The notes: generated by a model not told the origin, from the sequence alone. A DNA stretch of 19,134 nt from Candidatus Bipolaricaulia bacterium (GCA_046758705.1 JBHIAT010000060.1:1-19134), one strand, 5' to 3'; counted from the stretch's first letter, positions 1 to 17,692 are shown. Made by a program: numbers and translations.

Positions 1-26
1 ATCTAATTTTGAAAGGAGAAGACAAC

Positions 27-941
27 ATGGCAATAAGAAGCGGTGTGGCAGTAGCAAGTGAGGTGACACCGATTGAACTGCCCCAAACCCAGCCCAACTT
101 TGTAGAGACGCCGGCTGTAGCGAATGTCATCGGGAGAGCGATGCGGTATTTTCAAGCCGGCCTGCCGGTCCATTTCAGCGGTCCAACAGGCACCGGCAAA
201 ACCACCCTGGCCCTGCATCTCGCCGGTCAGCTCGGACGACCGGTCATACTGATCCATGGAGATGAAGAGTTCAGTACCTCAGACCTCGTGGGTGGAGAGT
301 ACGGTTTTAAAAGATCAACGGGGGTCGATAATTATATTAAATCCGTTCTCAAGACGCAAGAGAGTTTAAAGGTAAGCTGGGTGGATAAAGGGCTCACCAC
401 AGCATGCAGGCACGGGTATACCTTCCTTTATGATGAGTTCACCCGGGCCCGTCCGGAAGCAAACAACATATTGCTTTCGGTTCTGGAGGAGAGGATTCTC
501 GACTTACCCATCGCCCGAGAAACGGACGGCCATATGCAGGTTTCTCCCAACTTCAGAGCCATCTTCACCAGCAATCCCGAGGAATATGCCGGCGTTCATC
601 CAGCCCAAGACGCCCTACGAGATAGGATGATGACCATAAAATTACGGGGTTACGATCGGGAGACGGAGGTCGCTATTACCCAGGTCAAAGGGGGTATTCC
701 TCGCAGCGAAGCTGAGAAGATCGTGAAGATCGTTCGCGGATTCAGAGAGGCAAACAACGTATCCACCGCAACGGTGCGGGAAAGCGTGATGATTGCCAAG
801 GCGTTAAGTGTAGATGGCTCGCAAGCGAGAGCCGATAGCGAGAGCTTTGTACAGGCGTGTATAGATGTTTTGGGGGCGAAGACCGAGGATAGTGGTGAAT
901 TTGAACAGACGGTCACCGATTTAATTTTGGAGCATTGTTAG
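27..941 (+). CDS. gvpN: gas vesicle protein GvpN (MoxR-type AAA+ ATPase)
   Basis: Walker A GPTGTGKT, Walker B region YDEFTRARPEANNILLSVLEE, FRAIFTSNPEEYAGVH...QDALRDR typical of GvpN. ATG at 27 preceded by AAAGGAG. Confidence 0.95.
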   Translation: MAIRSGVAVASEVTPIELPQTQPNFVETPAVANVIGRAMRYFQAGLPVHFSGPTGTGKTTLALHLAGQLGRPVILIHGDEEFSTSDLVGGEYGFKRSTGVDNYIKSVLKTQESLKVSWVDKGLTTACRHGYTFLYDEFTRARPEANNILLSVLEERILDLPIARETDGHMQVSPNFRAIFTSNPEEYAGVHPAQDALRDRMMTIKLRGYDRETEVAITQVKGGIPRSEAEKIVKIVRGFREANNVSTATVRESVMIAKALSVDGSQARADSESFVQACIDVLGAKTEDSGEFEQTVTDLILEHC

Positions 942-957
942 CTCAGGAGGGTTGAAA

Positions 958-1197
958 ATGCTCGGCGTAGAAAGGCAGGTTTTAGCGTTAATCAAGGGGT
1001 TAGGATGGGCTGATAGGGAAGCCATAGCCCAAAAGATGGGGGTTTCCCCCAACTATCTGGATAAGATACTCAATGGCTTGATCAGAGATCGTTATCTATA
1101 TAAAACAGAGCGAGGGCAGTACAGGCTGAGATCTAAAGCCAAACGAGCGCTGGCCCCCTATCGAGGGGCGGTCATTGCCAGCACCGGCCCCCTATAG
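958..1197 (+). CDS. small winged helix-turn-helix protein (Rrf2/MarR-like fold)
   Basis: EAIAQKMGVSPNYLDKILNGL...GQYRL resembles a wHTH. AGGAGG at 945-950 lies 7 nt before ATG 958. Tightly packed in the operon. Confidence 0.75.
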   Translation: MLGVERQVLALIKGLGWADREAIAQKMGVSPNYLDKILNGLIRDRYLYKTERGQYRLRSKAKRALAPYRGAVIASTGPL

Positions 1198-1210
1198 AGG
1201 GTGATACGAA

Positions 1211-2272
1211 ATGTCCACAGATAGAAAGTTCATCTACGGGGTAATAAACACGGAACGGGAGAAAAGATTTGATTTCACCGGGATCGGGGGCGGGGAAGTT
1301 TATAACATATGCCACCGAGATATCTCCGCGCTGGTCAGCGATGCCCCCGGCCTGGCGTTCGATTCTATACCTAAAGAGGAGATCCTCCGCCACCTGGTCA
1401 TCTACCAGTATGTGGCTGAGCAGGTGATGAGGGATGGGGATTGCACCGTCATCCCGGTGAAGTTTGGCACGATGGCCGAGGGACAGGCGGAGGTCAAGAA
1501 AATCCTATCCAAGGGCTATCCCCGATTTAAACACTCACTTGATGAGCTGGACGGGAAGATCGAGTTCGATATCGTCGCTCTATGGAACGACATGGATTCT
1601 GTCTTCCAGGAGATCAGGGAGGAACAGGAGATCCAGGAGGTCATCGCCGGGATCACCGGGAAACCTCCCCGGGAAGCTCACCAAGACAAGGTCAAGGTGG
1701 GCGAGCTCGTCCAGGAGAAACTGGTTCAAAAGCGGAAAAAGCTTTCAGATGAAATAACAGGCTCCCTGAAACAGGCGGCTTGTGATCTCCGAGAGCATGA
1801 GCTTCTGGAAGGTGAAGCGATGATCATGAACGTCTCTTTCCTGGTCGATAAGAAAGATGTGGAGGGATTCAACCGGAAGCTCTACGAGCTGGACGAGCGA
1901 TATGAGGGACAGTTGACCTTCAGGCAGGTGGGGCCCCTTCCCCCGTATAGCTTTAATATGATGGAGGTCCAAGAGATCGGTTTCGAGCAATTCAATCATG
2001 CCTGCCGGCGTTTGGAGTTAAGGGGAGACCAGGTCACCGCTCTCGAGATCGAGCAGGCCTATCAAAGGTTATCCCGAAAGTACCATCCCGATCAGCGGGG
2101 TGGCGACCCGGAGAGGTTCGAACAGATCACCGAGGCCTACCAGCTGCTGATCGATTATTGTGAGAACACCCCGAAGGAAGACGGGAGATACCCCTTTATC
2201 GAGGAAAATCGCAAAGATTTCATCATCAAGGTGGTAGCACCTCAGCCGCTCAAAAGCGTTGTCGCGGCTTAA
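1211..2272 (+). CDS. GvpL/GvpF-family gas vesicle protein with C-terminal DnaJ (J) domain
   Basis: N-terminal FIYGVI, TVIPVKFGT and GPLPPYSF GvpL/F motifs, followed by EIEQAYQRLSRKYHPDQRGGDPERFEQITEAYQLL (J-domain, HPD at 2084-2092). Confidence 0.9.
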   Translation: MSTDRKFIYGVINTEREKRFDFTGIGGGEVYNICHRDISALVSDAPGLAFDSIPKEEILRHLVIYQYVAEQVMRDGDCTVIPVKFGTMAEGQAEVKKILSKGYPRFKHSLDELDGKIEFDIVALWNDMDSVFQEIREEQEIQEVIAGITGKPPREAHQDKVKVGELVQEKLVQKRKKLSDEITGSLKQAACDLREHELLEGEAMIMNVSFLVDKKDVEGFNRKLYELDERYEGQLTFRQVGPLPPYSFNMMEVQEIGFEQFNHACRRLELRGDQVTALEIEQAYQRLSRKYHPDQRGGDPERFEQITEAYQLLIDYCENTPKEDGRYPFIEENRKDFIIKVVAPQPLKSVVAA

Positions 2273-2293
2273 AGAGGGAGATCATCGCGAAAG

Positions 2294-3052
2294 ATGGACA
2301 AAGGAAAGTACATTTACTGCATCATAGGAACCGATAAGGAGAAAGAATTTGACGTCGAAGCGATCGGAGATCCGGCTCATCGGGTCTATACGGTCGGTTA
2401 CCGAGATATCGCGGCCGTCGTCTCCGATTCACCCGTGGAGGAATATGAGATTACCCGAGAGAACACCCTGGCGCACCAACGGGTCATGGAGGGGGTAATG
2501 AGGGAACATACCGTCCTGCCGGTGAGGTTCAACACGATCGCCGAGAGCAACCAGAAAAACGGTCCCGAAGCGCGGATTAACCAGGAGGTCCTGAAGCGGA
2601 GATCTAAGGAGTTCAAGGATCTGCTCGCAGAATTAAATGGGAAAGAGGCGCTCGGCGTAAAGGCGTTATGGACCGATATGGACCTGGTCTACGCCGAGAT
2701 CGCCACGAACAACAGGACGATCAGGAGATTGCGGGGGAAGCGGGTAAGCCGCGACACGGGGATTGAGATCGGCCATCAGGTCAGGGCCGCATTGGAGGAG
2801 AAAAAAGAGAGGGAGGAGCGGGCGATACTGAACGTTCTCAAGGAAGTTTCGCATGATTTCTGTATCAATGAGGGATATGGTGACAGGATGGTGACCAATG
2901 CCTCCTTCCTGGTGGAGACGGACCGCAGGGAGGCGTTCGATGATCGGCTGGATCAACTGATGACCAAGCGTGATGGGAGGATGGTGTTCAAGTATGTGGG
3001 CCCCATGCCGCCCAGCGATTTTGTGGAGATTGTGGTGAACTGGGAGGCGTGA
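2294..3052 (+). CDS. gvpF: gas vesicle protein GvpF (GvpL/GvpF family)
   Basis: GKYIYCII, AHQRVMEGVM, TVLPVRFNTI and YVGPMPPSDFV motifs. Directly upstream of gvpG, as in known gvpFG pairs. Confidence 0.88.
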   Translation: MDKGKYIYCIIGTDKEKEFDVEAIGDPAHRVYTVGYRDIAAVVSDSPVEEYEITRENTLAHQRVMEGVMREHTVLPVRFNTIAESNQKNGPEARINQEVLKRRSKEFKDLLAELNGKEALGVKALWTDMDLVYAEIATNNRTIRRLRGKRVSRDTGIEIGHQVRAALEEKKEREERAILNVLKEVSHDFCINEGYGDRMVTNASFLVETDRREAFDDRLDQLMTKRDGRMVFKYVGPMPPSDFVEIVVNWEA

Positions 3053-3058
3053 TCGACG

Positions 3059-3301
3059 ATGGCGTTCCTGGTGGATGATATCCTACTGGCTCCGGTCAAG
3101 TTCCCTGCATGGATGGCGAAAAAACTTATGGACCAGGCGGAGGAGGAGATGACCGATGAATCGAAGGTGCGAGAGTTGCTTTTAGAGCTCCAAATGAAGC
3201 TTGAGCTGGGAGATATCGGTGAAGAAGAGTATGAGAAGCAAGAGACAGAGATCATGGAATGGTTAAATTTCATCAGAGCGCGTAAGAAAGAAAACGGGTA
3301 A
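3059..3301 (+). CDS. gvpG: gas vesicle protein GvpG
   Basis: FLVDDILLAPVK...AEEEMTD...LLELQMKLELGDIGEEEYEKQE pattern of GvpG. Confidence 0.92.
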   Translation: MAFLVDDILLAPVKFPAWMAKKLMDQAEEEMTDESKVRELLLELQMKLELGDIGEEEYEKQETEIMEWLNFIRARKKENG

Positions 3302-3316
3302 GGAGGTGAGTTCAAT

Positions 3317-3595
3317 ATGGCCACACCGGCGGAGTTAGTCAGAACGGCCCGGGAACAACTGAGTGAGCTGACCGGATTGGAGCTTGCCAGTACGTTGGGT
3401 GTCACCAGAAAAGAGGAAGGTTGGCAGATATCCTTGGAGTTGGTGGAGAAGCATTCCATCCCCGAGCAGATGGATATCCTGGCAAGATACGAAGCTACGC
3501 TAGATGACGACGGCAACCTGCTGGACTTCAAGCGCAGGGGCCTCCGCAAGCGCGTCGATACCGAGTGGATTACCGAGGAGGAGCTGGCGGAATAA
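3317..3595 (+). CDS. gvpO: gas vesicle protein GvpO/GvpR
   Basis: GWQISLELVEKHSIPEQMDILARYEATLDDDGNLLDFKR matches the GvpO pattern. Strong RBS AAGGAGGT. Confidence 0.9.
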   Translation: MATPAELVRTAREQLSELTGLELASTLGVTRKEEGWQISLELVEKHSIPEQMDILARYEATLDDDGNLLDFKRRGLRKRVDTEWITEEELAE

Positions 3596-3671
3596 CCGTA
3601 AGAATGGAGATCAACGATTGATTTTTTCCTCAGTGACTCAAGAGCATGAAACGAAGGCAACCCAGGACGGG

Positions 3672-5699
3672 ATGCCGAGCTTTCTGAATAACGAGGATTT
3701 GCGACTGATCATCTTTGGTGGCAAGGGGGGCACGGGGAAGACGACCTCGGCAGCGGCCACAGCCGTCTATCTGGCCCAACGCCACCCGGCGAAGAACATC
3801 GTGGTGATCTCTACCGACCCGGCACACTCGCTGGGAGATAGTCTGAGCTGTTCGGTCAGGGGGGAAAGGACATCTATAACGAGAAATCTCTCGGCTTTGG
3901 AGTTAGATCCGGCAAAGTCCCTTGAGACGTTCAAGGCAGACCATAAACGCCGGATTGAGGAGCTCGTTCAGCGATCCGGTTTCTATGGCCAGGTGGATAT
4001 CAAGGAGTTCCTCTCTTTTTCCCTGCCGGGGATGGAAGAGATAATGATCTTTATGGAGATGGCCAAGTTGTTCAAATCCACCTGGCAGAAAAGACCTGGA
4101 GAGGATCGTTCCGTTTACCGCCCCAGGTGTGATGTGATGATACTTGACACGGCTCCCACCGGTCACACCCTTCGGCTACTCTCTCTGCCTCAGAGGATGG
4201 AGGAGTGGATTGAGGTCCTTGATGAATCGCTCAACAAATACCGCACCCACCCCAGGCTGTACGCGACCAGTGAACCGAGACGGGGAGGAGATTGGGTTGA
4301 CCGGTTCGTGGAACAGCTACACAGGGACATGGAGTGGGTCGGCTCGCTGCTTACCAACGCTGAAACCACTGAATTCGTTCCGGTGATCATTCCGGAACGG
4401 ATGGCCATCGCTGAGACGGAAGACCTCCTCCTCACCTTAGAAGAACGGGGGATCGCCGTCAGGAATATCATCATCAATAGGACTCGGGAAGATCGGGAAT
4501 GTGTGTTCTGTTCATCTCAACGGGGGAAACAGAAGATGGCTATCGCGGAGATCGAGGAGAAATTTTCCAGTTATCGGCTCATCGAAGTGCCCCTCTTCCC
4601 CTACGAAATTCGTGGCGATCAACGCCTGGCCGAATATGCTGAACGGTTGGCCGGAGAGACCCATCAGGATCGGCAACTAGAACCCAGTCGACCCCAACCT
4701 TCGGCATCTTTTCCAGTGAAGCTGCCCGAGCTGCTAACCCAGGATCTGAAATTTATCCTATTTGGCGGCAAAGGTGGAGTGGGCAAAACCTCCGTATCCG
4801 CTGCCACAGCTTTGCATGTGGCGAGGTGCTATCCCCAAAAAAAGGTGCTCGTCTACTCCATCGATCCTGCTCATTCATTGGCCGACAGCTTCGACTATCC
4901 GATCGGGGACCGGATCACCCAGGTGCCGGGGATTGACAATCTCTATGCCTTGGAGACGGATGCTGAAAGATTGTTTGAGAACTTCATGGGTGAATACCGA
5001 GCCCTTATCAAGGACGCCTTCGATATCTGGACCCAGGACGATAGGACCCGACGAAGGTTGGCATTACAGTTTGATCGGAACGTGATGAGCGCATTTTCCA
5101 AATCCGTGCCTCCGGGGTTCAATGAGCTCCTCGGGTTAGAGCAAATTATGGAATTCGTGGGGAAGAACGCCTATGACCTCTATGTTCTGGATACCGCACC
5201 CACCGGACACCTGCTTGAGCTCCTACAATTTCCTCAACTGATTAGAGATTGGGTGAAATACGCTTACCGAGGACTGCTGAAGTGGCAGCTGGAACTGCCC
5301 GTGACTGAGCTTCAGGAGTTGGGCAACAGGATCTTGCGGTCAACCACAGCGGTGAGAAAGATGCGAGACGCCCTCACCGACTCTGAAACGAGTGAATTTG
5401 TGGCGGTGACCATCCCTGAAGCAATGGGGATTGCTGAAACCGATCGGCTGACCTCGGCCATTCGAAAACTTGAAATCCCCTGGAGGCATGTCATTATGAA
5501 TCAGATCGTACCGCCCATGAACTGTGGCTTCTGCGCTTCCAAACGGGATGAACAGCTCAAGTATATTCAACAGGTGAAGACTGAAGATCGATATCGCGAT
5601 TGCCTGATCACCGAGATACCGTTGTTCCCTCATGAGATTAACGGGATGGATGATCTAACCGAGCTTACCAAGCTGATGTATGGGGAGGTAGAAAGCTGA
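3672..5699 (+). CDS. tandem two-domain ArsA/Get3(TRC40)-family ATPase
   Basis: Two deviant Walker A motifs (GGKGGTGKTT, GGKGGVGKTS), STDPAHSL/SIDPAHSL, two DTAPTGH, and one CxxC in each half (CVFC, CGFC). Start is 3672 (ATG) or 3618 (TTG). Confidence 0.92.
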   Translation: MPSFLNNEDLRLIIFGGKGGTGKTTSAAATAVYLAQRHPAKNIVVISTDPAHSLGDSLSCSVRGERTSITRNLSALELDPAKSLETFKADHKRRIEELVQRSGFYGQVDIKEFLSFSLPGMEEIMIFMEMAKLFKSTWQKRPGEDRSVYRPRCDVMILDTAPTGHTLRLLSLPQRMEEWIEVLDESLNKYRTHPRLYATSEPRRGGDWVDRFVEQLHRDMEWVGSLLTNAETTEFVPVIIPERMAIAETEDLLLTLEERGIAVRNIIINRTREDRECVFCSSQRGKQKMAIAEIEEKFSSYRLIEVPLFPYEIRGDQRLAEYAERLAGETHQDRQLEPSRPQPSASFPVKLPELLTQDLKFILFGGKGGVGKTSVSAATALHVARCYPQKKVLVYSIDPAHSLADSFDYPIGDRITQVPGIDNLYALETDAERLFENFMGEYRALIKDAFDIWTQDDRTRRRLALQFDRNVMSAFSKSVPPGFNELLGLEQIMEFVGKNAYDLYVLDTAPTGHLLELLQFPQLIRDWVKYAYRGLLKWQLELPVTELQELGNRILRSTTAVRKMRDALTDSETSEFVAVTIPEAMGIAETDRLTSAIRKLEIPWRHVIMNQIVPPMNCGFCASKRDEQLKYIQQVKTEDRYRDCLITEIPLFPHEINGMDDLTELTKLMYGEVES

Positions 5700-5778
5700 T
5701 GATCACAAAAGCGGGGAAACGGATCGCCCGTCCTGCGAGTGGAATGCCTCCCCCCGTCAGTGAGGAGCGTGATGAGCG

Positions 5779-6126
5779 ATGACCATAGAGGCCACGAAGG
5801 AGCGGACCGACGGGGGTCTGGCAGAGATGATTGACCGGATCTTGGACAAAGGGTTGGTGATCAACGCGGATATCACCGTATCGGTCGCCGGCGTAGAGCT
5901 TTTGGGGATCAAGATCAACGCCGCATTGGCTTCATTTGAAACCGCGGCCAAGTACGGCCTGGAGTTCCCCTCGGGGACCAACACCGAGACCGCAGCCTGG
6001 AAGGAAGCGATGCAACCCAAGGAAGCCTGCCCAAACTGCGACAAAAACGTAGCCGAAGCAGCGCTCCTGGATGGCGGCTGTCCGTGGTGCGGGTGGACCA
6101 GTGCCTGGGCCAAGATAAAAACATAG
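5779..6126 (+). CDS. gvpJ: gas vesicle protein GvpJ (GvpA/J/M family) with C-terminal CxxC...CxxC tail
   Basis: GLAEMIDRILDKGLVINADITVSVAGVELLGI...ASFETAAKYGLEFPSGT closely resembles archaeal-type GvpJ. Precedes gvpK. Confidence 0.85.
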   Translation: MTIEATKERTDGGLAEMIDRILDKGLVINADITVSVAGVELLGIKINAALASFETAAKYGLEFPSGTNTETAAWKEAMQPKEACPNCDKNVAEAALLDGGCPWCGWTSAWAKIKT

Positions 6127-6142
6127 AGGATAAGGAGGAAGG

Positions 6143-6499
6143 GTGCCCATCAACATCGATGAGCGCAGTTTAAAACACGGCGTTTTGGGGCTGGTCATCG
6201 CCCTGGTAGAGATCATCCAGGATGCGCTTAACCACCAGGCGCTCAGACGGATGGAAAGCGGCAGCCTCACCGAAGCGGAGGTCGAAAGATTGGGAAAGGC
6301 ACTCATGGAGCTGGATACCGCGATTGAGGAACTGAAACAGGAGCAGGGAATCGTCGAAGCGGTGCAATCGGTACGGGATGGCCTGGATCATCTTGCCTAT
6401 GACACCATCAATCAGTTAGTGAACCCAGAGAAGTGGGCAGAGATCAGAAGGAAGGCAGAAGAGCGTCAACATGCAAGAACAAGCAGAGGACAGTTCTAA
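6143..6499 (+). CDS. gvpK: gas vesicle protein GvpK
   Basis: LVIALVEII...QALRRMESGSLTEAEVERLGKAL GvpK signature. GTG start after AAGGAGG. Confidence 0.93.
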   Translation: MPINIDERSLKHGVLGLVIALVEIIQDALNHQALRRMESGSLTEAEVERLGKALMELDTAIEELKQEQGIVEAVQSVRDGLDHLAYDTINQLVNPEKWAEIRRKAEERQHARTSRGQF

Positions 6500-7256
6500 C
6501 GCCCAATATCTTTACTGTATCGCCAACAGCCCGGCACAGGTTACCCTGGGTGAGATAGGCATAGAGGGGAACGAGGTCTATACGATCGCCTATAAGGATC
6601 TGTGTGTGGTCGTTCATGATTGTGCCCCGCAGCCCTATGAATCCGAGGACGAGCAGATGGTTAAAGAGTGGGTGGTCGCTCATGTGAACGTTGTGGAGGC
6701 TGCTTGGGAGCGGTTCGGCACCGTGATCCCGTTCCGCTTCGATACCATCATCGATGGCGCTCAGGAGAACGTAACCAGCTGGCTAAAGGAGACATATGAA
6801 GATTTGAAGCACAGGATAATCCAATTCGAAGGGTTGGCAGAATACGGAGTTCAGATCTTTTGGGATCCTGAGATTATCATCGAAAGGGTGTCTGGTACAG
6901 ATACGACCATCAAGGAGTTGAACCAGAAGATAGCCGCCATGTCCGAGGGGACCGCCTATCTGCACCAGCAGAAGCTGGTGAAGCTGTTAAAGGAGAAGGT
7001 GGAGGAGGAAGCGGATCGATGTTTCAGGGACTGCTACAACCGGATTAGGGTGTGCATTGAGGACATACAGGTGGGGAGGGTGAAACAGGAGAAGGAGAGG
7101 GAGCAGGAACAGGGCAAACAGATGCTGGCCAATCTGGCCTGTCTGGCCGAAAAGCCCCCGCGGAGGTTGGGGGAGGAATTGGGGAAGATCGCGCGGATGG
7201 ACGGATTTTCCGTCCGGTTCACCGGACCCTGGCCGCCGTATAGTTTTGCCGATTAA
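6471..7256 (+). CDS. gvpL: gas vesicle protein GvpL (GvpL/GvpF family)
   Basis: YLYCIA, TVIPFRFDTII, EYGVQIFWD and FTGPWPPYSF motifs. Positioned between gvpK and gvpM. Confidence 0.87.
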   Translation: MQEQAEDSSNAQYLYCIANSPAQVTLGEIGIEGNEVYTIAYKDLCVVVHDCAPQPYESEDEQMVKEWVVAHVNVVEAAWERFGTVIPFRFDTIIDGAQENVTSWLKETYEDLKHRIIQFEGLAEYGVQIFWDPEIIIERVSGTDTTIKELNQKIAAMSEGTAYLHQQKLVKLLKEKVEEEADRCFRDCYNRIRVCIEDIQVGRVKQEKEREQEQGKQMLANLACLAEKPPRRLGEELGKIARMDGFSVRFTGPWPPYSFAD

Positions 7257-7260
7257 AAAA

Positions 7261-7524
7261 ATGGATCGATTGAAGATGGAACCGACCCGAGATAAACAGG
7301 TCACGATAGCCGACCTGCTCGATAGGGTTTTGGATAACGGGGTCGTGATCAGAGCCGATATCGTCATCTCCGTCGCCGGCATTCCCCTGATCGGAGTCAA
7401 TCTACAGGCCGCGCTGGCCGGGATGGAGACGATGCTGGAATGGGGGATGTTAGAAAGCTTTGATAAAGAGCTCCGAGAGCGGGAAGGTCAGCATCGGGAC
7501 GAGCTGTCCCTGGCCCAGGTATGA
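7261..7524 (+). CDS. gvpM: gas vesicle protein GvpM-like (GvpA/J/M family)
   Basis: MEPTRD...DLLDRVLDNGVVIRADIVISVAGIPLIGVNLQAALAGMETMLEWG resembles archaeal GvpM. Alternative start at ATG 7276. Confidence 0.8.
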   Translation: MDRLKMEPTRDKQVTIADLLDRVLDNGVVIRADIVISVAGIPLIGVNLQAALAGMETMLEWGMLESFDKELREREGQHRDELSLAQV

Positions 7525-7553
7525 ACCGATGGTAGTAGAAGGAGGGTTGGGAG

Positions 7554-9281
7554 ATGTCTAAAGCAGTGGGCATTGATCTGGGGACCACCAACTCGGTAGC
7601 GGCTGTCATAGAGAACGGTCGGCCCATCGTGATACCCAACGCGGAAGGTGGGCGACTCACTCCATCGGTGGTTGCGTTTCAACGGGACGGAGCCCGATTG
7701 GCCGGACAGTTAGCAAAAAGACAGGCCGCAGCGAACCCAGAGCATACCATCTTTTCGATCAAGCGGCAGATGGGGGACGGCTGGAAGATGAGAGTTGATG
7801 GGGTCGCCTATACCCCCGAGAAGATCTCCAGTCTGATCTTGGGAAAGATCAAAGCCGATGTAGAAAGCTATTTGGGCGAGCGGGTGGAGCAGGCCGTGAT
7901 TACCGTGCCGGCTTACTTCAACGACCACCAGCGTCGGGCGACCCAAGCTGCGGCCAGAATCGCCGGGCTGGAGGTGCTCAGAATCATCAACGAGCCCACC
8001 GCCGCCGCGTTGTCGTATGGATTGCATCGGCAAAGGGTTCATAAGATCCTGGTTTGGGACCTGGGGGGCGGCACGTTTGACGTCTCCATCTTAGCATTGA
8101 GTGAAGGGTTTTTTAGAGTGGTGGCCGTCAATGGGAATACCCGACTGGGGGGAGATGACTGGGATCAGCGGATCACGCAGTATTTGGTCGATAAGCTCGC
8201 CCATGAGCACGGGATTGAGCTGCGGGAGGACAAGATAGCTTATCAAAGGCTGAAACAGGCCGCAGAGACGGCCAAGATTGAGCTATCCAGCCAATCGGTC
8301 ACCGATGTGAGGTTGCCGTTTATCAGCGACACCGACACTCACCCCCTGAATATCACCTTAACCCGGGAGCAAGTTGAGGCGTTAACGGAAGACCTCCTGG
8401 AGAAGATGGTCGCTCCCACCCGACAAGCGCTTGCCGATGCCGAACTGAAATCTGAAGATATCGATCGCGTCGTTTTAGTCGGCGGAGCCACCCGGATCCC
8501 CGCCGTCCAAGCGTTGGCCAAAGAACTTTTGGGACAAGAACCCTATAAGGAGATTGACCCCGATCAGGTCGTAGCCGTAGGCGCAGCGATTCAGGCGGGT
8601 ATTCTGACCGGCGAAGTCAAAGATGTGATCCTGGTCGATGTGACCCCATTATCTTTGGGCATTGAGACCCGAGGTGGAATCTTCGCGAAAATCATCGGCA
8701 GGAATACGACCATTCCCGTCTCCCGAGGACAGATATTTACCAACGCCTACGATGATCAGGCTGAAATAGATGTCCATGTCCTGCAAGGGGAGAGGGAGTT
8801 AGCTGAGTATAATATGAGTTTAGGCAAATTTCAGCTGGATATTCCTCCATTAGAACGGGGAAAAGCAAGAATTGAGGTGAACTTTAACATCGACGTCGAC
8901 GGCATTATCCATGTGACCGCCCGTGATCTCCATACCGATCATGAGAAAAGGGTCATCATCGATTCTCCTTCTGGATTATCAGAGGAGGAGATCGAGGCGA
9001 TGGTGAAGGAAGCCCGCCAACACGCCCAACAGGATGAACATAAGCGAAGGGAGATAGAGGTAAAGATTCGTGCGGATAACGCAATCCATGTAGCAGAAGG
9101 GATAATCGAGGAGGTAACGGACGAATCCCAACGGAAGGAACTGCAACAGGCCATATTAAGAACAAAAGATGCCCTTTCCGGTGAAGATAGCGACATGATC
9201 AACCTAAGAACTGAGGAGTTGGGTGAGCTCATTGAGAATTGGGAACGCCAATGCCAACAGACCTCCCTTACTAGAGGATGA
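7554..9281 (+). CDS. dnaK: Hsp70/DnaK-family chaperone, gas-vesicle-cluster paralog
   Basis: GIDLGTTNS, AVITVPAYFND, DLGGGTFDVS, VVLVGGATRIP and linker DVILVDVTPLSLGIET. 575 aa with a short C-terminus. No grpE, dnaJ or hrcA adjacent. Confidence 0.93.
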   Translation: MSKAVGIDLGTTNSVAAVIENGRPIVIPNAEGGRLTPSVVAFQRDGARLAGQLAKRQAAANPEHTIFSIKRQMGDGWKMRVDGVAYTPEKISSLILGKIKADVESYLGERVEQAVITVPAYFNDHQRRATQAAARIAGLEVLRIINEPTAAALSYGLHRQRVHKILVWDLGGGTFDVSILALSEGFFRVVAVNGNTRLGGDDWDQRITQYLVDKLAHEHGIELREDKIAYQRLKQAAETAKIELSSQSVTDVRLPFISDTDTHPLNITLTREQVEALTEDLLEKMVAPTRQALADAELKSEDIDRVVLVGGATRIPAVQALAKELLGQEPYKEIDPDQVVAVGAAIQAGILTGEVKDVILVDVTPLSLGIETRGGIFAKIIGRNTTIPVSRGQIFTNAYDDQAEIDVHVLQGERELAEYNMSLGKFQLDIPPLERGKARIEVNFNIDVDGIIHVTARDLHTDHEKRVIIDSPSGLSEEEIEAMVKEARQHAQQDEHKRREIEVKIRADNAIHVAEGIIEEVTDESQRKELQQAILRTKDALSGEDSDMINLRTEELGELIENWERQCQQTSLTRG

Positions 9282-10167
9282 ACCGGTCATCTTATCCGGT
9301 CAGGGGGTCTGCAAAGATAATGGTTCACGATCGGGCTGGAGACCTGGGCATCTTTATCTGACCCAGAAAAGATTGCTCCTGTTTCAACCGGCAGGGATGA
9401 TATTTGAAACCCTGCTAGATAACGTTACGGATATCTCAGTGGGGAAAAAACAGTTTGTCCTGACGAAGAAGCCAGCCATTTGCATATCCTATAAGCATCC
9501 GAGAAGTGAAACAAGCTCAAAGATCTGGATCATCGCAGACGACCTTAACACCTGGAAGAGAGAGATATATGGAAGAACGCTGTTAACGATTGATGAGCAG
9601 GCGGTCGATCGAATCGTTCAACAGTTGGATCAAGACAGCCAGGAGATACTCTGGTATTGTTGGAGAAACGGACACGCGACGATCGATGAATTATCCGAAG
9701 TGATGAAAGCCCTGGCTCACATGGATCTCCTCCATAAGATCAAGAAGGTGATCAACCCGACCGCGGAGCGGACGATCGGAAGTCCGATATTGACATTTGA
9801 ACGATCCAGAGTTGATCCGGTGACCGGGGAGAAGATCTTATTCGGTTGGTGGCTTATGGGCAAAAAGTGTCTGGAGGGAAGGGAGCCGATCCTGGATATC
9901 TTCGACGAGGAAGATCATCTCACGGTGATCCTGGAGCTACTGGATGTCCAGGTCCAGGAAGAGGAGATCCTGGTGAGAGCGGGAGATGATGAGCTGACCG
10001 TATCGGCTAGAGGGTACCATAAGAAATTTTCTCTGCCGGCAGAGGTCCACAGTGAGGTATTCACCCAAAGGTGCAACAATAACATGTTACAGATCAAACT
10101 GAACAAGACAAATGGGTCGGGACGGGACAGCGTTCACCGTTTCAGCGGACGTAGATCCCTTCCCTGA
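9223..10167 (+). CDS. multi-domain protein: GRAM/PH-like N-terminus, wHTH-like middle, Hsp20/alpha-crystallin C-terminus
   Basis: WRPGHLYLTQKRLLLF (GRAM/PH-like), SQEILWYCWRNGHATIDELSEVM (HTH-like) and EPILDIFDEEDHLTVILEL...FSLP...NNNMLQIKLNK (ACD). Start is uncertain and overlaps the dnaK 3' end. Confidence 0.72.
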   Translation: MSSLRIGNANANRPPLLEDEPVILSGQGVCKDNGSRSGWRPGHLYLTQKRLLLFQPAGMIFETLLDNVTDISVGKKQFVLTKKPAICISYKHPRSETSSKIWIIADDLNTWKREIYGRTLLTIDEQAVDRIVQQLDQDSQEILWYCWRNGHATIDELSEVMKALAHMDLLHKIKKVINPTAERTIGSPILTFERSRVDPVTGEKILFGWWLMGKKCLEGREPILDIFDEEDHLTVILELLDVQVQEEEILVRAGDDELTVSARGYHKKFSLPAEVHSEVFTQRCNNNMLQIKLNKTNGSGRDSVHRFSGRRSLP

Positions 10168-10256
10168 GTCACGAAGTGGATGTTCTGGGTGAACGCCTGT
10201 CCTTCATCCAGACAGGGATGGAGGCTAAACTTTTGAGGCTGGCAAAGGAAGAGTAA
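10114..10256 (+). repeat. ~130-bp repeated element, copy 1 (upstream of an Hsp20/GvpH-like gene)
   Basis: 10125-10256 aligns with 15301-15433 with 19 substitutions and one 1-nt indel. Confidence 0.9.
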
Positions 10257-10259
10257 GCA

Positions 10260-10796
10260 ATGGGAGGTGAAGAGATGACCGGTAAACGGGAAGGAGAAGA
10301 GAAGAAAGCACCTGAGTTCGATATCGGCATTGACCTGGGGGGGCTGTTCGGGGGAATCTTCAAAGGGATCAATGATCTGGCCGACTTGGCCGCAGAGCTG
10401 GCCGAAAAAGGGGAGGTGGTCCGAGAGGGAGCGTTCGACTTCGAGGATCGTAAAGGGAGGTTCGGCTTCGCCATGAAGACCGGGGTCGCGGACGACACGG
10501 AATTTAGAGTCCGCACATCCGAAAGGAAAAAAACCGGTAAGCGCGAGGAGATCCGCGAACCCCTCATCGACATGTTTGAGGAGGAGGACGAGACGGTGAT
10601 CTACGTCGAACTCCCCGGGGTCGAGCAGCAGGATATCAAGACCGAACTGAAACAAGGTCGCTTGCACATAGAAGCTGAGCACAGAGGGATTAAATACAAA
10701 AAGGAGATAGAGCTGTCTGAGCGTGCCAAAGGCGAGCCAAGCTACGAATACAAGAACGGCATCTTGAAGGTCCGGTTCGCTCAGTCAGAGAGATGA
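10260..10796 (+). CDS. Hsp20/alpha-crystallin family protein, GvpH-like
   Basis: LGGLFGGIF N-terminus and REPLIDMFEEEDETVIYVELPGVE...YKNGILKVRF alpha-crystallin domain. Confidence 0.85.
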   Translation: MGGEEMTGKREGEEKKAPEFDIGIDLGGLFGGIFKGINDLADLAAELAEKGEVVREGAFDFEDRKGRFGFAMKTGVADDTEFRVRTSERKKTGKREEIREPLIDMFEEEDETVIYVELPGVEQQDIKTELKQGRLHIEAEHRGIKYKKEIELSERAKGEPSYEYKNGILKVRFAQSER

Positions 10797-10820
10797 AACC
10801 GCGAATACTGGCGGTGAGGA

Positions 10821-10877
10821 ATGCTCTATCGGGTGGATAAGAGATTGCCTGGGGATATCAAGGTCATTTATCTTTCA
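10821..10877 (+). pseudogene. remnant of the 3' end of the 17153-17692 hypothetical gene
   Basis: 51/57 nt identical to 17636-17692. Translates MLYRVDKRLPGDIKVIYL versus VLHRVDKRLPGDIKVTHL. Confidence 0.85.
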
Positions 10878-11282
10878 AGCCTCCGTGGTCCGTTTCAAAA
10901 GCGCTATGGAAAAGATTCCGTTCTTCGAGGTGATCTTCGGCCGACCTGTCACCGCGCATGGAAGCTCAACACATTGTCTGAGGCGCAACGGGACACTAAG
11001 CCGGACCATATTCCTGTCTACATCGACTTTCAAAGCTGATTTTTCGATATACATCGGAAATACTGCCAATATTTTTATGGTATTTCGCTCTTCAAACACA
11101 TTGATCAGCGATTCTCTCCTGTTTACCTGAATCTGATCGCGTTTCCCATTGCTCTTTACCCACTGCTTTGGCCACCCGTTGGCTGTGGTGATCGGGTGAC
11201 TTCTTCTGGCGTTACGAGGCCGAGTCCTGACTGCCTTAGACCTTCCCGTTACTCCTCCTAAAGTACGAATCCTGATAATCAT
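10875..11282 (-). CDS. divergent, basic Hsp20/alpha-crystallin (GvpH-like) protein
   Basis: RESLINVFEERNTIKILAVFP...VELPCAVTGRPKITSKNGIFSIAL parallels the other ACD paralogs. ATG 11282 follows GAGGAGGGG on the - strand. Confidence 0.75.
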   Translation of the reverse strand: MIIRIRTLGGVTGRSKAVRTRPRNARRSHPITTANGWPKQWVKSNGKRDQIQVNRRESLINVFEERNTIKILAVFPMYIEKSALKVDVDRNMVRLSVPLRLRQCVELPCAVTGRPKITSKNGIFSIALLKRTTEA

Positions 11283-11305
11283 CGCGACCCCTCCTCGGGC
11301 ATCCA

Positions 11306-11371
11306 AGACATCCCGAATGTCCTACAGAGATATCCTAAATGACCAATCAGAATGGCTCAAATGTCCTACTA
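11306..11371. promoter_or_regulatory. three phased 22-bp units, candidate operator array
   Basis: AATGTCCTAC at 11316, AATGACCAAT at 11338 and AATGTCCTAC at 11360. Unit 1 contains the palindrome GACAT-N5-ATGTC. Confidence 0.55.
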
Positions 11372-11487
11372 AGGTTATTTTACCCAGGATTCATCGTCAA
11401 GGGGTATGAGAAGGGAACTTTGTCCCATTGTTGCCTTGAGCTTATATCTCACCAGATTAACCATCCCCTAAGGGCATGAACCGGATT

Positions 11488-11597
11488 GGGTCGAAACAAC
11501 AGTCACCTTTTCAACGAACGTAGATCCCTTCCTGGGTTAACGCATGTCCTTCATCCCGGGAGAGATGGAGACTAAAATCCTGAGGGTGGCAATAGAG
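11488..11597 (+). repeat. ~130-bp repeated element, copy 2 (internal ~22-bp deletion)
   Basis: TCACCTTTTCAACGAACGTAGATCCCTTCC...TGTCCTTCATCC...GATGGAGACTAAAATCCTGAGGGTGGCAA matches copies 1 and 3. Confidence 0.85.
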
Positions 11598-11639
11598 ACC
11601 GAGTTGCCCAGCTACTCGGGATCCTCCTTCTTAGAGGCT

Positions 11640-11807
11640 GACCGGCTGCATCCCGATCATAACCCCGAGAATCTGGAGGCCGAGGCCCACATGGCCGCGC
11701 TGACCCGGGCCTATCGGCTCCTCACCGCCTACGCCGAAAGCCAGGCGCTGACAAACGCCGACGTGCATTGTGACTTCAGCCAGGAGGTGCCAGTCCAAGC
11801 CAAATGA
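11640..11807 (+). pseudogene. J-domain C-terminal fragment, probable remnant of a second GvpL/F-J fusion
   Basis: RLHPDHNPENLEAEAHMAALTRAYRLL = HPD loop plus helix III only. The N-terminus of ORF 11544-11807 derives from the repeat element. Confidence 0.7.
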
Positions 11808-12676
11808 TGCAGGCTATCATGTACCAGAACCAGAACGACCGCGAACACGCTTACTACGTCTACGCCGTCGCCCAATCCCAGGACAGCCGGGAGCCTGGCC
11901 CCTTGCCGGCCGAGGGCATCGTCCCGCAGGTTTCGGTCTCTACTCTGACCTACCGGGACCTGCTCGCCGTCGTTAGCCCCGTTCCCTTGGCGGAGTTCGG
12001 CCCGCTGGCTCTAGAGGATCACCTACAGGATGCGGACTGGGCCCAAGCCCGGGTACTGGCCCACCAGCAGGTCCTGGCGGCGCTCCTCGATGGCTACACC
12101 CTGGTTCCCTTCAAGTTCTGCACTCTCTACCACAGCTGGGTGCGGGTACGGGAGATGCTGGCCTGGCACTATGAGGCTCTGAACCAGGCCTTGCAGCGCC
12201 TGAAAGGAGCTACCGAGTGGGGCGTCAAGCTCTACTGCGACCGGCGGGCGCTGATGGAATGGGTGCGGAAGGACAGCGGGGTACTCCAATCGCAGCGGGA
12301 GGCGATCGCTCAGGCATCAGCGGGAGTCGGCTATTTTCTGCGCAAGAAGTTAGAGCAGGAAGCAGAGGAAGAGGTTGAGCGGGTGATGGATGTCTGCGTA
12401 AACGAGAGCCACTGGCATTTGGCCGACTGTGCCCGGGAAGCGGTCACCAATCCAGTCCAGCCTCCGACGGTGCACGGACACAAGGCCGAGATGGTCCTCA
12501 ACAGCGCCTATCTGGTGGACGAGATCGACCTGGAGGCGTTTCGGAGGACCCTGGCGATCCTGGAGAGGAGCTATGCCCCCCAGTTCCGGTACGAACTAAC
12601 GGGCCCCTGGCCCCCTTACAACTTCGCCACCCTAGAGCTAGAGGAGGTTACCGATGAGTCCAGCCCGGTGGAATGA
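11804..12676 (+). CDS. gvpL: GvpL/GvpF-family gas vesicle protein (second-cluster fragment)
   Basis: YYVYAVA, AHQQVL, LVPFKFCTLY, EWGVKLY, MVLNSAYLVD and TGPWPPYNF motifs. Confidence 0.9.
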   Translation: MMQAIMYQNQNDREHAYYVYAVAQSQDSREPGPLPAEGIVPQVSVSTLTYRDLLAVVSPVPLAEFGPLALEDHLQDADWAQARVLAHQQVLAALLDGYTLVPFKFCTLYHSWVRVREMLAWHYEALNQALQRLKGATEWGVKLYCDRRALMEWVRKDSGVLQSQREAIAQASAGVGYFLRKKLEQEAEEEVERVMDVCVNESHWHLADCAREAVTNPVQPPTVHGHKAEMVLNSAYLVDEIDLEAFRRTLAILERSYAPQFRYELTGPWPPYNFATLELEEVTDESSPVE

Positions 12677-12881
12677 GAATGGACGCGATGTCGCCCTGGT
12701 GGAGCTCCTGGACCGCGCCCTGGACAAAGGGGTGATCCTCTGGGGAGACATCATCCTGTCCGTGGCCGACGTGGACCTGATTTACGTGGGTCTGAAGGTG
12801 CTGTTGAGCTCGGTGGAGACGGCTGAGCGGATGCGGAGCGCAGTGGCTCAACCGACACTAGAGCTGGAGCGTAAACCATGA
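12654..12881 (+). CDS. GvpA/J/S-family small gas vesicle protein (GvpS-like)
   Basis: VALVELLDRALDKGVILWGDIILSVADVDLIYVGLKVLLSSVETA resembles bacterial GvpS/GvpJ. Confidence 0.85.
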   Translation: MSPARWNENGRDVALVELLDRALDKGVILWGDIILSVADVDLIYVGLKVLLSSVETAERMRSAVAQPTLELERKP

Positions 12882-13058
12882 TGTATCTATATGCCATCAC
12901 CGACCGACCCGAGGCACCCGTGCCTGCCGGGCCCAGCCTGGAGGAAGCTTCCCCCCTCAGCCTCTCCTACCGGGGCATCGCTGCCGTGGTCAGTCCCCTC
13001 ATCATGGCCGAAGTGCCGCTGACGGCGGTTAACCTGTGGCGTCATGAGGCGGTTGTGA
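12878..13058 (+). pseudogene. truncated GvpL/GvpF-family gene (N-terminal ~60 codons)
   Basis: MYLYAITD...GIAAVVSP...NLWRHEAVV is a GvpL/F N-terminus. Homology stops abruptly and the ORF runs on into AT-richer sequence to 13237. Confidence 0.8.
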
Positions 13059-13230
13059 GGGTGCCAGGCAGATCGGTGCGAAAATATATGATTTGGTCAA
13101 CTGTCCAATTCAATGTTCTCTTTTCCTATCTCCCTAATGTCTCAAAAGGAGAAAAATCAGACACTACAGTAAAAACAGCAGTCCCTTTGATCCTTCTGAA
13201 ATCCCCTAGGAGCGGGAATCAAGTTTGCCA

Positions 13231-13262
13231 AAACTAGACAATATGTATGAATTGTCTAGTTT
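13231..13262. repeat. perfect 12-bp inverted repeat
   Basis: AAACTAGACAAT-atgtatga-ATTGTCTAGTTT. Confidence 0.9.
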
Positions 13263-13411
13263 CCAGGGTTTGTTGAATAATTGACTCTGGCAGTTGGTCA
13301 GGTGCAGCGAGTGGTTAGCCCGCCTTCTGCTCTATCTGCATAGGGTGTGAGCAACAGCAACACCCTCTGAGATTCAACCCCCGTTGCGACAACCTCAAAA
13401 CTGTCTGATCC

Positions 13412-13448
13412 TTTTTGGCTTATACCTGGTGTGGGTGTAAGCCAAAAA
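13412..13448. repeat. 15-bp inverted repeat (one G-T pair)
   Basis: TTTTTGGCTTATACC-tggtgtg-GGTGTAAGCCAAAAA. Confidence 0.9.
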
Positions 13449-13590
13449 AGTCACGGGGATGGCCCGACAAGCCCGTCAGGACCCCGATCCGGTCTATGTC
13501 CAGGGTGCCCGAAACCGTTGAAGGGCAATAGAAAGCCGCTCAGAACACGCTACATCCTGCATGGGCAGGGTGATTTGTAAAGGGGGAATA

Positions 13591-14073
13591 CTAAAAAGCC
13601 AACGTGAAGAAGCCACCAGGCCCGTTATAGATCAACACACAATGCGAGAGCACGTCACGGCCTACCAACACAACGATATCTTGACCCCCAGTACTTTGCC
13701 CTTTGAGATCCACACCCACTACGGAACTGAACTCGGTTTCCAAGGCCACCCCCGGGAAGCGGAATTTTGCAGGATAGAGATTGTGTTGACCTAGCCCGCG
13801 AGCGCTTCCTATGGTGGTTACGCCGATGGGACTAACCCCTAGGCTCTCGATAGCTTGCACATCGACGCAACTCCTCGACGCTCCCGTGTCAATGAGTGCC
13901 AAGCCGGACACTGGTGCAGGAATTGGTTGGTCTTGTTCAGTCAGGTATTGGGCAAGTACTGAGGGAACAGAAACCTCGACGTTTAGGAGGGGACCTATTT
14001 GCCTCAGGACCTTGGGATCAACCTTGACAGGCCCTTGTTGAGGCAATTGAAAGAATCGGCTATAAACGGGCAT
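13591..14073 (-). CDS. retropepsin-like (clan AA) aspartyl protease
   Basis: Catalytic ALIDTGASRSCV and C-terminal VLVGRDVLSHCVLIYNG motif. Confidence 0.88.
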   Translation of the reverse strand: MPVYSRFFQLPQQGPVKVDPKVLRQIGPLLNVEVSVPSVLAQYLTEQDQPIPAPVSGLALIDTGASRSCVDVQAIESLGVSPIGVTTIGSARGLGQHNLYPAKFRFPGVALETEFSSVVGVDLKGQSTGGQDIVVLVGRDVLSHCVLIYNGPGGFFTLAF

Positions 14074-14314: not shown

Positions 14315-14339
14315 TCCATTCTCTCCCTCTGTTCGTCTT

Positions 14340-14368
14340 AATGTAACATATTGATATAAAGATGTCAA
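14340..14368 (-). promoter_or_regulatory. sigma70-type promoter for the DUF5678/protease pair
   Basis: On the - strand: TTGACA (14368-14363), 17 nt, TGn-TACATT (14345-14340), about 26 nt upstream of the ATG. Confidence 0.75.
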
Positions 14369-14503
14369 TTGCAAAGACCCTCTGTCTACTATGGGTAGGG
14401 TGATCCGTCAATTTCCCCGTCTGAACCAGCGCCTGTTCGCCCTCCTCAAGTGATGCACAGCTTGCGCTTGAGGCCATAGGGGAGATTGCAAGCCGCGTTC
14501 GCG

Positions 14504-15442: not shown

Positions 15443-16030
15443 ATGCCTAAAAGGGCTGGGAAAGAACCCAAGTCTGAGATTGCCGAGGAATTCTTTAAGG
15501 AGCTGGGATTAGGGGGTTTGATCGACAGGTTAAAGAGATCCGAAGTCTTCAGGAAGCGGATGGAGGAAGTCAATCGCCAGATCGAGGAGAACCTGGAGCG
15601 AGGGGTTGAGGGTGGGCAGGTCCGCCCACGGGTCAGATACGGCTTTTCGATGAGAACGCTGACGAGCCGCCCTTCCCAGGGTCTAAAGGAACGCTGGACG
15701 CCGAGAGGCAGGCAGGGGAGGGAGAAGCAACCGCAGGAACCCGAGCCGTTTGTCGAAACCTTCGATGAGGGCGGTTTTATTGACGTGATCGCCACCTTCC
15801 CCGGAGTCGAGGAGGAGCAACAGCTTAAGGTGGAAGTGAAGGAGAACGTGTTGCTGTTATCCGCCGGTTCTTATCGTGAGGAGATCGAGCTGCCGGGTCC
15901 GGTGAGGGGTAAGCCCCAGGTGCGGTTCAAAAACGGGGTGTTCGGCATCAAGCTGGAAAAGCAGGGTCAAGATAACGGTCGAGATCGACGAAAAGAACTA
16001 GAAACGGGGCCTGGGCCTGGCGAGACTTAA
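15443..16030 (+). CDS. Hsp20/alpha-crystallin family protein, GvpH-like
   Basis: LGLGGLID...YGFSMRTL...EPFVETFDEGGFIDVIATFPGVE...IELPGPV...FKNGVFGIKLEK. RBS AAGGAG. Confidence 0.85.
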   Translation: MPKRAGKEPKSEIAEEFFKELGLGGLIDRLKRSEVFRKRMEEVNRQIEENLERGVEGGQVRPRVRYGFSMRTLTSRPSQGLKERWTPRGRQGREKQPQEPEPFVETFDEGGFIDVIATFPGVEEEQQLKVEVKENVLLLSAGSYREEIELPGPVRGKPQVRFKNGVFGIKLEKQGQDNGRDRRKELETGPGPGET

Positions 16031-17152: not shown

Positions 17153-17692
17153 ATGCGCCAGTTGATCTACGTCCCGATACTGCACACCCCGGAGGATATG
17201 GGCTCGTTAGCCGAGAGACTCAGGGAGGAATACATCGCCCGGATCGGGGAATCTGAATGGCGTCAACATCTTGAGGAGATTGACAACCTCTGGGCTCGGA
17301 TCAGGGAGAAGATCCTCGCGTTCCCGTTGGACTGGAAAACGGTCAAGGTTTATCAGGATGGATTGCCCCAATGCGGCAGGGAGCTCGAGATCACCGCAGA
17401 GTTGGCGAACACAGGGAGCAAAAACTACCAATTGGTTCTGGATCTGGTGGCAAAGGGGGCCAGGCTCATAGGGACTGAAGATCCGAACCTCCTGGTTGAG
17501 GAGTACAGTCATCTTAAGGGGAAACGGACGCAGCCCAAACACAGCCTGGATCTGCTCGTTCAGCGGGATGAATACATGGCAAACCGGATCGCTGAGACGT
17601 TGAATGAAGGTGAGACGGGTATCCTGTTCTTAGGGGTGCTCCATCGGGTGGATAAGAGATTGCCTGGAGATATCAAGGTCACTCATCTTTAA
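17153..17692 (+). CDS. hypothetical protein, TraB/TIKI/ChaN-like motif pattern
   Basis: LIYVPILH...VYQDGLP...RDEYMANRIAETL...GILFLGVLH. RBS GAGGT. The fold assignment is inference. Confidence 0.7.
   Translation: MRQLIYVPILHTPEDMGSLAERLREEYIARIGESEWRQHLEEIDNLWARIREKILAFPLDWKTVKVYQDGLPQCGRELEITAELANTGSKNYQLVLDLVAKGARLIGTEDPNLLVEEYSHLKGKRTQPKHSLDLLVQRDEYMANRIAETLNEGETGILFLGVLHRVDKRLPGDIKVTHL

Follow-up and report, generated by a model that had tools for sequence, protein, structure and literature searches.

Why should a bacterium keep an Hsp70 chaperone, together with a J-domain fused to a gas vesicle protein, among its gas vesicle (gvp) genes? The question is raised by a stretch of 19,134 nucleotides of Candidatus Bipolaricaulia bacterium (GCA_046758705.1 JBHIAT010000060.1:1-19134), which, at its full length, we call the window. 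An original prediction described its first part as a packed, co-directional run interleaving gvpN/F/G/O/J/K/L/M with an Hsp70, a GvpF/L–J-domain fusion (FLJ in what follows), alpha-crystallin proteins and a Get3-like ATPase, and understood the whole as a dedicated chaperone line. A listing of open reading frames (ORFs), Pfam and NCBIfam agree with this gene content. Between bases 9 and 10796, 14 genes with intact frames follow one another on the plus strand, the intergenic gaps do not exceed 92 nt, and three gene pairs overlap. The arrangement is confirmed as real, and the cluster is typical of a gvp cluster class that is so far uncharacterised. The answer that we favour, and hold to be probable, is that this class is widespread and carries a built-in Hsp70 cycle dedicated to one client and targeted by the GvpF-J adaptor.

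The core accessory set, gvpN, F, G, J, K, L and M, plus gvpO, is complete in the window by Pfam and NCBIfam, with GvpN and GvpL exceeding their equivalog cut-offs. Promoter- and terminator-like sites were no commoner in consensus scans of the window than in shuffled sequence, so it is the packing of the genes that justifies the word operon. Rfam returned zero matches in the window at E values up to 0.1.

Among 5.8 billion clustered proteins the fusion has 66 relatives, and PF00226 and PF06386 occur together in 58 of them. A profile of the family matches GvpF structures over positions 1-249 (6L5D, E 1e-34; 4QSG, 7e-32) and J-domains over positions 264-321, including 5NRO_B, a DnaJ in complex with DnaK (E 5e-14). 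In an alignment of 35 homologs, the HPD tripeptide of the J-domain (H292, P293 and D294) does not vary in any of the 35. It follows a GPLPP motif in 79 of the 80 related loci described below, the exception (L076) being a broken frame. With an HPD between helices II and III, no G/F or zinc-finger region, and the GvpF domain alone preceding, FLJ belongs to the class C (type III) J-proteins. An apparent fusion of Hsp70 itself to GvpF/L-J (a 1002-aa frame in L069) was discarded as the artefact of a gap of 100 N; in the sister locus L070, stop codons separate the two genes. Within the window's phylum (184 genomes), GvpF/L-type matches were found in at least 13 other genomes, most of the matches returned being to the J-domains of DnaJ; among the matches listed, one spanning the J-domain (positions 1-341) occurs in the source genome only. 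In one family of that phylum the GvpF/L matches (G106, G108, G109, G115, G117, G119) each contain a single in-frame TGA, which recoding, an alternative genetic code or read-through at the end of the gene could explain.

Is the Hsp70 simply the DnaK of this organism? The source assembly (3.70 Mb in 319 contigs, 93.9% complete) holds, on contig C59, another complete Hsp70 gene whose neighbours are grpE and a full-length dnaJ, neither of which is present in the window. This DnaK is 51% identical to the gvp-linked protein. Because a separate grpE-dnaK-dnaJ operon exists, the gvp-linked protein is a paralog and not the housekeeping DnaK, as had been anticipated. It is intact: residues 1-507 align with Geobacillus DnaK (2V7Y), the motifs of the actin-like ATPase, the interdomain linker and the beta-sandwich substrate domain are conserved, the helical lid is present, and the acidic C-terminal tail is missing. 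It scores 759.3 bits against NF001413 (cut-off 648). An identity as HscA was rejected, since TIGR01991 gives 564.6 bits, below its cut-off of 708.55, and the DnaK models score higher. Five genomes with a gvp-linked Hsp70 were searched for a further copy; four of them also hold a higher-scoring canonical DnaK, and the fifth is an incomplete single-cell genome.

The same division appears when one starts from the chaperone. A metagenome scan seeded with the window Hsp70 returned, as its best 80 loci, mostly housekeeping DnaKs at 49-58% identity. Three of these loci, the top-ranked one included, are flanked by gvp genes, all three without a full-length grpE or dnaJ alongside; one of them (L097) has a weak, 42-bit DnaJ-like match inside its gvp cluster. 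In 59 others grpE, dnaJ or both adjoin the Hsp70, and 18 are too short to judge. This survey displays a dichotomy between gvp-flanked and grpE/dnaJ-flanked Hsp70s and is not a census of the gvp-type clade.

How general is the arrangement? FLJ was used to scan one genome per species in 185,579 species, which gave 456 stretches confirmed by tblastn. The best 80 (the loci numbered L here) were annotated by tblastn with the window proteins; many are short contigs. By their record titles all 80 derive from metagenomes or single cells, and they are labelled Thermodesulfobacteriota, Chloroflexota, Nitrospirota, Planctomycetota, Actinomycetota, Acidobacteria, Aerophobetes, Omnitrophota, NC10, Verrucomicrobiota and others. 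An Hsp70 lies inside 18 of the 80, a gene for an alpha-crystallin domain (ACD) protein inside 44, and an ArsA-like gene inside 30, two-domain in 18 of the latter. The end of a Cdc48-type AAA+ gene lies less than 600 nt before FLJ in 46 loci; counting only the 51 loci that have 2.5 kb or more on that side, the number is 34. The L011 protein has a CDC48_N and two AAA domains by Pfam. Where at least 8 kb are available on both sides (18 loci), Hsp70 is seen in 9, Cdc48 in 12, ACD genes in 17 and ArsA in 11. We labelled as type A the 19 loci with GvpL and GvpM like those of the window, and as type B the 14 with a different GvpF/GvpA-like pair. Hsp70 is inside 14 of the 19 type A loci, or 16 counting L025 and (probably) L061, where it sits just past the locus end. 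These outlying genes come from whole-genome searches of 50 of the loci's genomes; that of L025 is on the same contig, and in L027 the Hsp70 lies 17 kb downstream of FLJ. By these comparisons the linkage of gvp genes, FLJ and chaperones is conserved across many phyla, in keeping with what the prediction needed. L011, from a Desulfobacteraceae relative, also has three genes resembling the 23S-rRNA intervening-sequence protein or bAvd (824-1180, 12584-12949, 14274-14639), dispersed in its gvp cluster.

The history of the Hsp70 can be read from a tree of 59 rows, made of gvp-linked copies, second copies of the same genomes and database relatives. It splits into 31 and 28 rows with full support (100/100, ultrafast bootstrap / Shimodaira–Hasegawa-like approximate likelihood ratio test). 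On the 31-row side stand the window Hsp70 and 12 more that are gvp-linked; these 12 come from genomes labelled Desulfobacterota, Dehalococcoidia, Nitrospirota, Edwardsbacteria, Aerophobota and Actinomycetota. The Verrucomicrobiota Hsp70 (L025), which bears no label in the tree, is there as well. The second Hsp70s of these genomes, 10 in number, are without exception on the 28-row side, with the DnaKs of Firmicutes. Median length is lower in the main gvp clade (about 583 aa) than in the other rows (about 628 aa). Five gvp-linked Hsp70s of Anaerolineales make a separate clade, again at 100/100, nested among Chloroflexota DnaKs, and in their loci the Hsp70 is directly upstream of FLJ. The approximately unbiased test rejects a single clade for all 18 gvp-linked Hsp70s (p 3.4e-5), which points to two independent recruitments of Hsp70 by gvp clusters. 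In a tree of FLJ from 35 loci the subgroups largely mirror those of the Hsp70 (L036 with L047 and L053; L029 with L021 and L026; L017 with L007), which shows the two to be co-inherited. The mirrored subgroups cut across phylum labels, a pattern to be expected if whole clusters were transferred, or if there were errors in binning. Two clusters, in metagenome-assembled genomes of Nitrospirota (L036) and Edwardsbacteria (L047), are nearly identical, with branch lengths of 0.02-0.03 in both trees; this points to recent transfer or to a binning error.

Two further kinds of protein complete the set. Each half of the tandem ATPase contains a P-loop of the deviant Walker A form GKGGxGKT, the switch II sequence DTAPTGH and a CxxC, and with 431.5 bits against TIGR00345 (cut-off 135) it belongs to the Get3/TRC40/ArsA subfamily. 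That it might be ArsA proper was rejected: the ArsA equivalog TIGR04291 gives 192.1 bits for a cut-off of 650, and the window is without ars genes. In the Protein Data Bank its best matches are the tandem ArsA1 of Chlamydomonas (5ZME, 206 bits) and archaeal Get3 (3ZQ6 and 3UG6, about 165), ahead of Escherichia coli ArsA (98). The CxxC of both halves aligns with that of archaeal Get3, and the label Get3-like, given in the prediction, is thus upheld. An AlphaFold2 (AF2) model of the 314-aa protein (mean predicted local distance difference test score of 76, from a nine-sequence alignment) consists of a pleckstrin homology (PH)-like part, a helical middle and an ACD; Foldseek relates the ACD to Sulfolobus solfataricus Hsp20.1 (4RZK, template modelling score 0.78 on the target) and the first part to the PH-like 6B3Y. 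Its gene comes after Hsp70 also in L011, L023 and L067. At 16138-17277, L011 encodes a GvpM with fused GRAM/PH-like regions similar to the N-terminal part of this protein. The Hsp20 that closes the run weakly matches an annotated gvpH of a Methylosinus plasmid (31% identity, E 2e-4), and the ACD assignment of two paralogs further on (10875..11306 and 15443..16030) comes from BLASTP only. The GvpJ-like protein (5779-6126), for its part, ends in a zinc-ribbon-like CxxC...CxxC tail; GvpJ matches in the relatives are equally long.

Table 1. Genes and remnants of the gas vesicle region, with positions counted from the first base of the window
Feature	Position	Strand	Evidence
gvpN (AAA+ ATPase)	9..941	+	TIGR02640 327.8 bits vs cut-off 266.8; PF07728; start codon ~8 nt into contig
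Small helix-turn-helix (HTH) protein, possible regulator	952..1197	+	Sub-threshold Rrf2/HTH matches only; tblastn relatives in 8/80 related gvp loci
FLJ: GvpF/L domain (residues 7-248) + J-domain (~262-320, HPD 292-294)	1211..2272	+	PF06386 181 bits; PF00226 39.7 bits vs cut-off 27.8
gvpF	2294..3052	+	PF06386 193.8 bits
gvpG	3059..3301	+	PF05120 68.4 bits
gvpO	3317..3595	+	PF05800 71.9 bits
Tandem (pseudo-dimeric) Get3/ArsA-like ATPase	3672..5699	+	PF02374 454.6 bits, two stretches; ORF opens at 3504, likely start ATG 3672 behind AGGA
GvpJ-like, GvpA-family	5779..6126	+	PF00741 61.3 bits; NF046090 GvpJ 99.3 bits, below cut-off
gvpK	6143..6499	+	PF05121 74.1 bits
gvpL	6471..7256	+	NF045778 215.7 bits vs cut-off 200
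GvpM-like, GvpA-family	7246..7524	+	PF00741 60.1 bits; NF046091 93.3 bits, below cut-off
gvp-linked Hsp70 paralog, 575 aa	7554..9281	+	PF00012 677.8 bits
314-aa protein: PH/GRAM-like + helical (winged-HTH-like) middle + C-terminal ACD	9223..10167	+	AF2 model, Foldseek
Hsp20 / GvpH-like small heat-shock protein	10260..10796	+	PF00011 24.4 bits vs cut-off 20.8
Diverged ACD protein	10875..11306	-	28% identical to window Hsp20, E 2e-9; no Pfam match
Second GvpF/L-J gene, C-terminal remnant: HPD retained, GvpF part gone	11544..11807	+	50% identical to residues 284-333 of FLJ homolog P0042, E 2e-13
Fourth GvpF/L paralog, decayed second cluster	11804..12676	+	PF06386 206.7 bits; best match Chloroflexi L081, 352 bits
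Small GvpA-family protein, J/M/S kind, not canonical GvpA	12654..12881	+	PF00741 51.4 bits; 31% identical to L011 GvpA
Truncated GvpF/L, ~first 60 residues match	12878..13237	+	PF06386 23.2 bits, residues 2-61; 68% identical over 59 aa to L044
Further Hsp20-like paralog	15443..16030	+	29% identical to window Hsp20, E 3e-13; tblastn matches in 40/80 gvp loci
TraB/GumN-like, recurrent gvp cluster member	17153..17692	+	39% identical, E 1e-35, to gene just downstream of FLJ in L011; 32/80 loci

The prediction closed the cluster at 10796, which was too early: gvp-related genes run on to about 17.7 kb (Table 1). Part of this extension is a decayed second cluster (the fourth GvpF/L, the small GvpA-family protein and the truncated GvpF), most like Chloroflexi loci and with a GC content of 0.63 against about 0.53 elsewhere. 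A direct repeat of 59 nt, 90% identical between its copies at 10817-10875 and 17632-17690, brackets 6.8 kb of mostly unassigned ORFs; one copy is the 3' end of the TraB/GumN-like gene, and the other directly follows Hsp20. Contigs from public runs bridge 8106-11939, 9060-12152, 12007-14475 and 12754-16759, so that the joins past 10.8 kb are not an artefact of this assembly; the three runs belong to one study and may include the source sample. At the other end, contigs from two public runs reach 328 and 627 nt beyond the window start.

An element of about 130 nt, without an Rfam match, occurs at 10114-10245, 11483-11592 and 15290-15434, in front of two Hsp20 paralogs and across the beginning of the J-remnant ORF, with an inverted partial copy at 16403-16436. 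Its sole other copies in the genome are on contig C55 (12083-12170 and 20105-20212), where they flank a stretch with a Cdc48-like gene. The element could be a shared regulatory region, or else a small mobile element. The Cdc48-like AAA+ protein of C55 (14156-17863; minus strand, 2257-5964 of L200) is 54-61% identical to the gvp-linked copy of L011, and carries an intein with a LAGLIDADG domain inside its first AAA domain. The window ends, on the minus strand of 17703-19133, with a PilB-type T2SSE ATPase that has an MshEN domain. Run depth is about threefold higher there, which means that other organisms or copies share this part.

What could such a set of proteins do? GvpF is the primary binder of GvpA and a proposed chaperone, according to recent papers (PMC11445434, PMC9501494, PMC10903477). 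In the scheme that we propose, the GvpF-like domain of FLJ would bind a hydrophobic shell protein of the GvpA family. Its J-domain would then trigger ATP hydrolysis in the Hsp70 of the cluster or, in relatives that have none, in the housekeeping DnaK. The Hsp70 would clamp its client and keep it soluble until handover to the growing vesicle; nucleotide exchange would presumably fall to the single GrpE of the genome. The alpha-crystallin proteins would be holders that work without ATP, and the tandem Get3-like ATPase might act as a holdase as well, shielding hydrophobic helices. ACD proteins in gvp clusters carry the annotation GvpH, and GvpH of Halobacterium is described in one review as preventing aggregation of GvpM, with GvpL binding GvpJ and GvpM (PMC9501494). 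We infer every binding step, the client and the direction, assembly or recycling; the same must be said of the predicted 'holdases feeding an Hsp70' and of the choice between assembly and disassembly.

Several observations weigh against this reading. Hsp70 is present in none of the 14 type B loci and in half of the 18 long-flanked ones, so a private Hsp70 is dispensable for the class; many relatives have the J-fusion and no such Hsp70. This makes the J-fusion the constant element, and the private Hsp70 the mark of one cluster type, that of the window. Compared with housekeeping DnaK, the gvp Hsp70 clade has clade-specific residues at V192 and I505 only (at the 85% level), and a specialised substrate pocket is not evident. 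A search for longer forms of FLJ gave a single protein, of 668 aa, in which the two Pfam domains of FLJ recur; an Hsp70-GvpF/L fusion was not among its results, which counts as weak evidence. The group submitted to the approximately unbiased test was named only after the first tree had been inspected. Finally, a canonical gvpA was found neither in the window nor in the rest of the assembly, at its 93.9% completeness, so this copy of the cluster may not make vesicles; and the 59-nt repeat gives 10.8-17.7 kb a rearranged look, akin to an insertion scar.

These points lead to the other explanations. That the window cluster is a decaying remnant which has ceased to build vesicles, irrespective of what the class does in other genomes, would account for the missing gvpA, for the truncated second FLJ and truncated GvpF, and for the repeat around 6.8 kb. 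The three PF00741 proteins of the whole assembly are all in the window and all of the J/M kind. Against decay, all 14 genes of the main run have intact frames. The contig, moreover, begins at gvpN, and relatives have gvpA some 2 kb further upstream, so its absence may be an effect of the assembly edge; the public contigs that extend past the window start suggest that the missing part was perhaps not assembled. We think this explanation quite unlikely. A general stress island caught among gvp genes by chance, with no role specific to vesicles, is a very improbable one. Hsp70, small heat-shock proteins and AAA+ proteins are indeed common stress genes, and the scarcity of clade-specific residues would suit it, but the J-domain is covalently joined to a GvpF domain, the chaperone genes are interleaved with the gvp genes rather than just adjacent to them, the linkage recurs over many phyla with, as it seems, two recruitments of Hsp70, and the housekeeping operon is elsewhere in the genome.

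The remaining alternative concerns direction. The machinery might extract, unfold and recycle the shell protein of collapsed or surplus vesicles, as auxilin and Hsc70 uncoat clathrin, instead of serving assembly. A Cdc48-type unfoldase directly upstream of FLJ in the majority of relatives would be at home in such a process, and a J-domain placed on a binder of structural protein suits uncoating as well as delivery. The window, however, is without a Cdc48-like gene, the genome's copy being on C55, and GvpF is reported in two reviews to bind monomeric GvpA early, possibly co-translationally (PMC9501494, PMC10903477). The sequence itself holds nothing that would discriminate between assembly and recycling. 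We consider recycling unlikely, and retain a client-dedicated Hsp70 cycle targeted by the GvpF-J adaptor as the probable mechanism.

A bolder form of this proposal deserves to be stated, though we offer it tentatively and with some doubt. In many anaerobic, uncultured lineages vesicles might be built through an obligatory Hsp70 cycle of this kind, where a GvpF-J adaptor hands the amyloid-like shell protein to a private, twice-evolved Hsp70, with Get3-like and alpha-crystallin holders upstream and, in relatives, Cdc48. Should it be true, a self-assembling protein organelle would, for the first time, have an Hsp70/J pair devoted to it. The solubility of the extremely hydrophobic GvpA, and its insertion into the shell, are named as an open problem in a recent review (PMC10903477). 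Aggregation of GvpA2 is proteotoxic in E. coli, as stated in a report (PMC12848028) that bears on the same problem. The cluster class offers for it a concrete mechanism and a list of parts (J-fusion, Hsp70, Get3-like ATPase, ACD proteins, Cdc48), and their transfer to heterologous hosts could, if the mechanism is right, relieve the proteotoxicity that limits engineered gas vesicles.

It remains to place the cluster among known systems. The prediction took the accessory set to be uncharacterised, which is not supported for a part of it. Two-domain ArsA homologs and Hsp20 within gvpN/L/F/G/J/K/M clusters were described in Chlorobi, Bacteroidetes, Geobacter, cyanobacteria and Acidobacteria by Castillo and Saier (2010; PMC2963123). 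Its passages on gas vesicles and chaperones that we consulted mention neither an Hsp70 nor a J-domain nor a gene of the Cdc48 type, and ArsA is only proposed there to 'energise' a step. Hsp70, DnaK and J-domain have zero occurrences each in reviews of the model gvp clusters from 2022 and 2024 (PMC9501494, PMC10903477), and we found no description of any of them in gvp clusters in openly readable full texts, supplements aside. The ArsA and Hsp20 part is known since 2010, and the Hsp70/J part, common to many uncultured bacteria, is apparently not yet in print.

The likeness to solved GvpF structures (4QSG, 6L5D) lies in the N-terminal 250 residues of FLJ, whereas characterised GvpF and GvpL are without a J-domain. 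With Get3/TRC40, as known from Chlamydomonas ArsA1 (5ZME) and archaeal Get3 (3ZQ6, 3UG6), the window ATPase shares the P-loop, the DTAPTGH switch and the CxxC of both halves; it differs in sitting in a gvp operon, where a tail-anchored client and a membrane receptor are not evident. The closest parallel, in logic only, comes from the biogenesis of Fe-S clusters. There HscB and HscA (with IscU) are a client-specific J-protein and a dedicated Hsp70 paralog, encoded in the operon of their client, with the housekeeping DnaK kept separate. The gvp clusters show the same disposition, a putatively dedicated J-protein/Hsp70 pair in the operon of its presumed client beside a housekeeping DnaK system. 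They depart from it in that the gvp Hsp70 is not HscA, the J-domain is carried on a GvpF fold, and the would-be client is a hydrophobic shell protein. If our reading is correct, they would provide a new case of Hsp70 specialisation, comparable with that of HscA and HscB.

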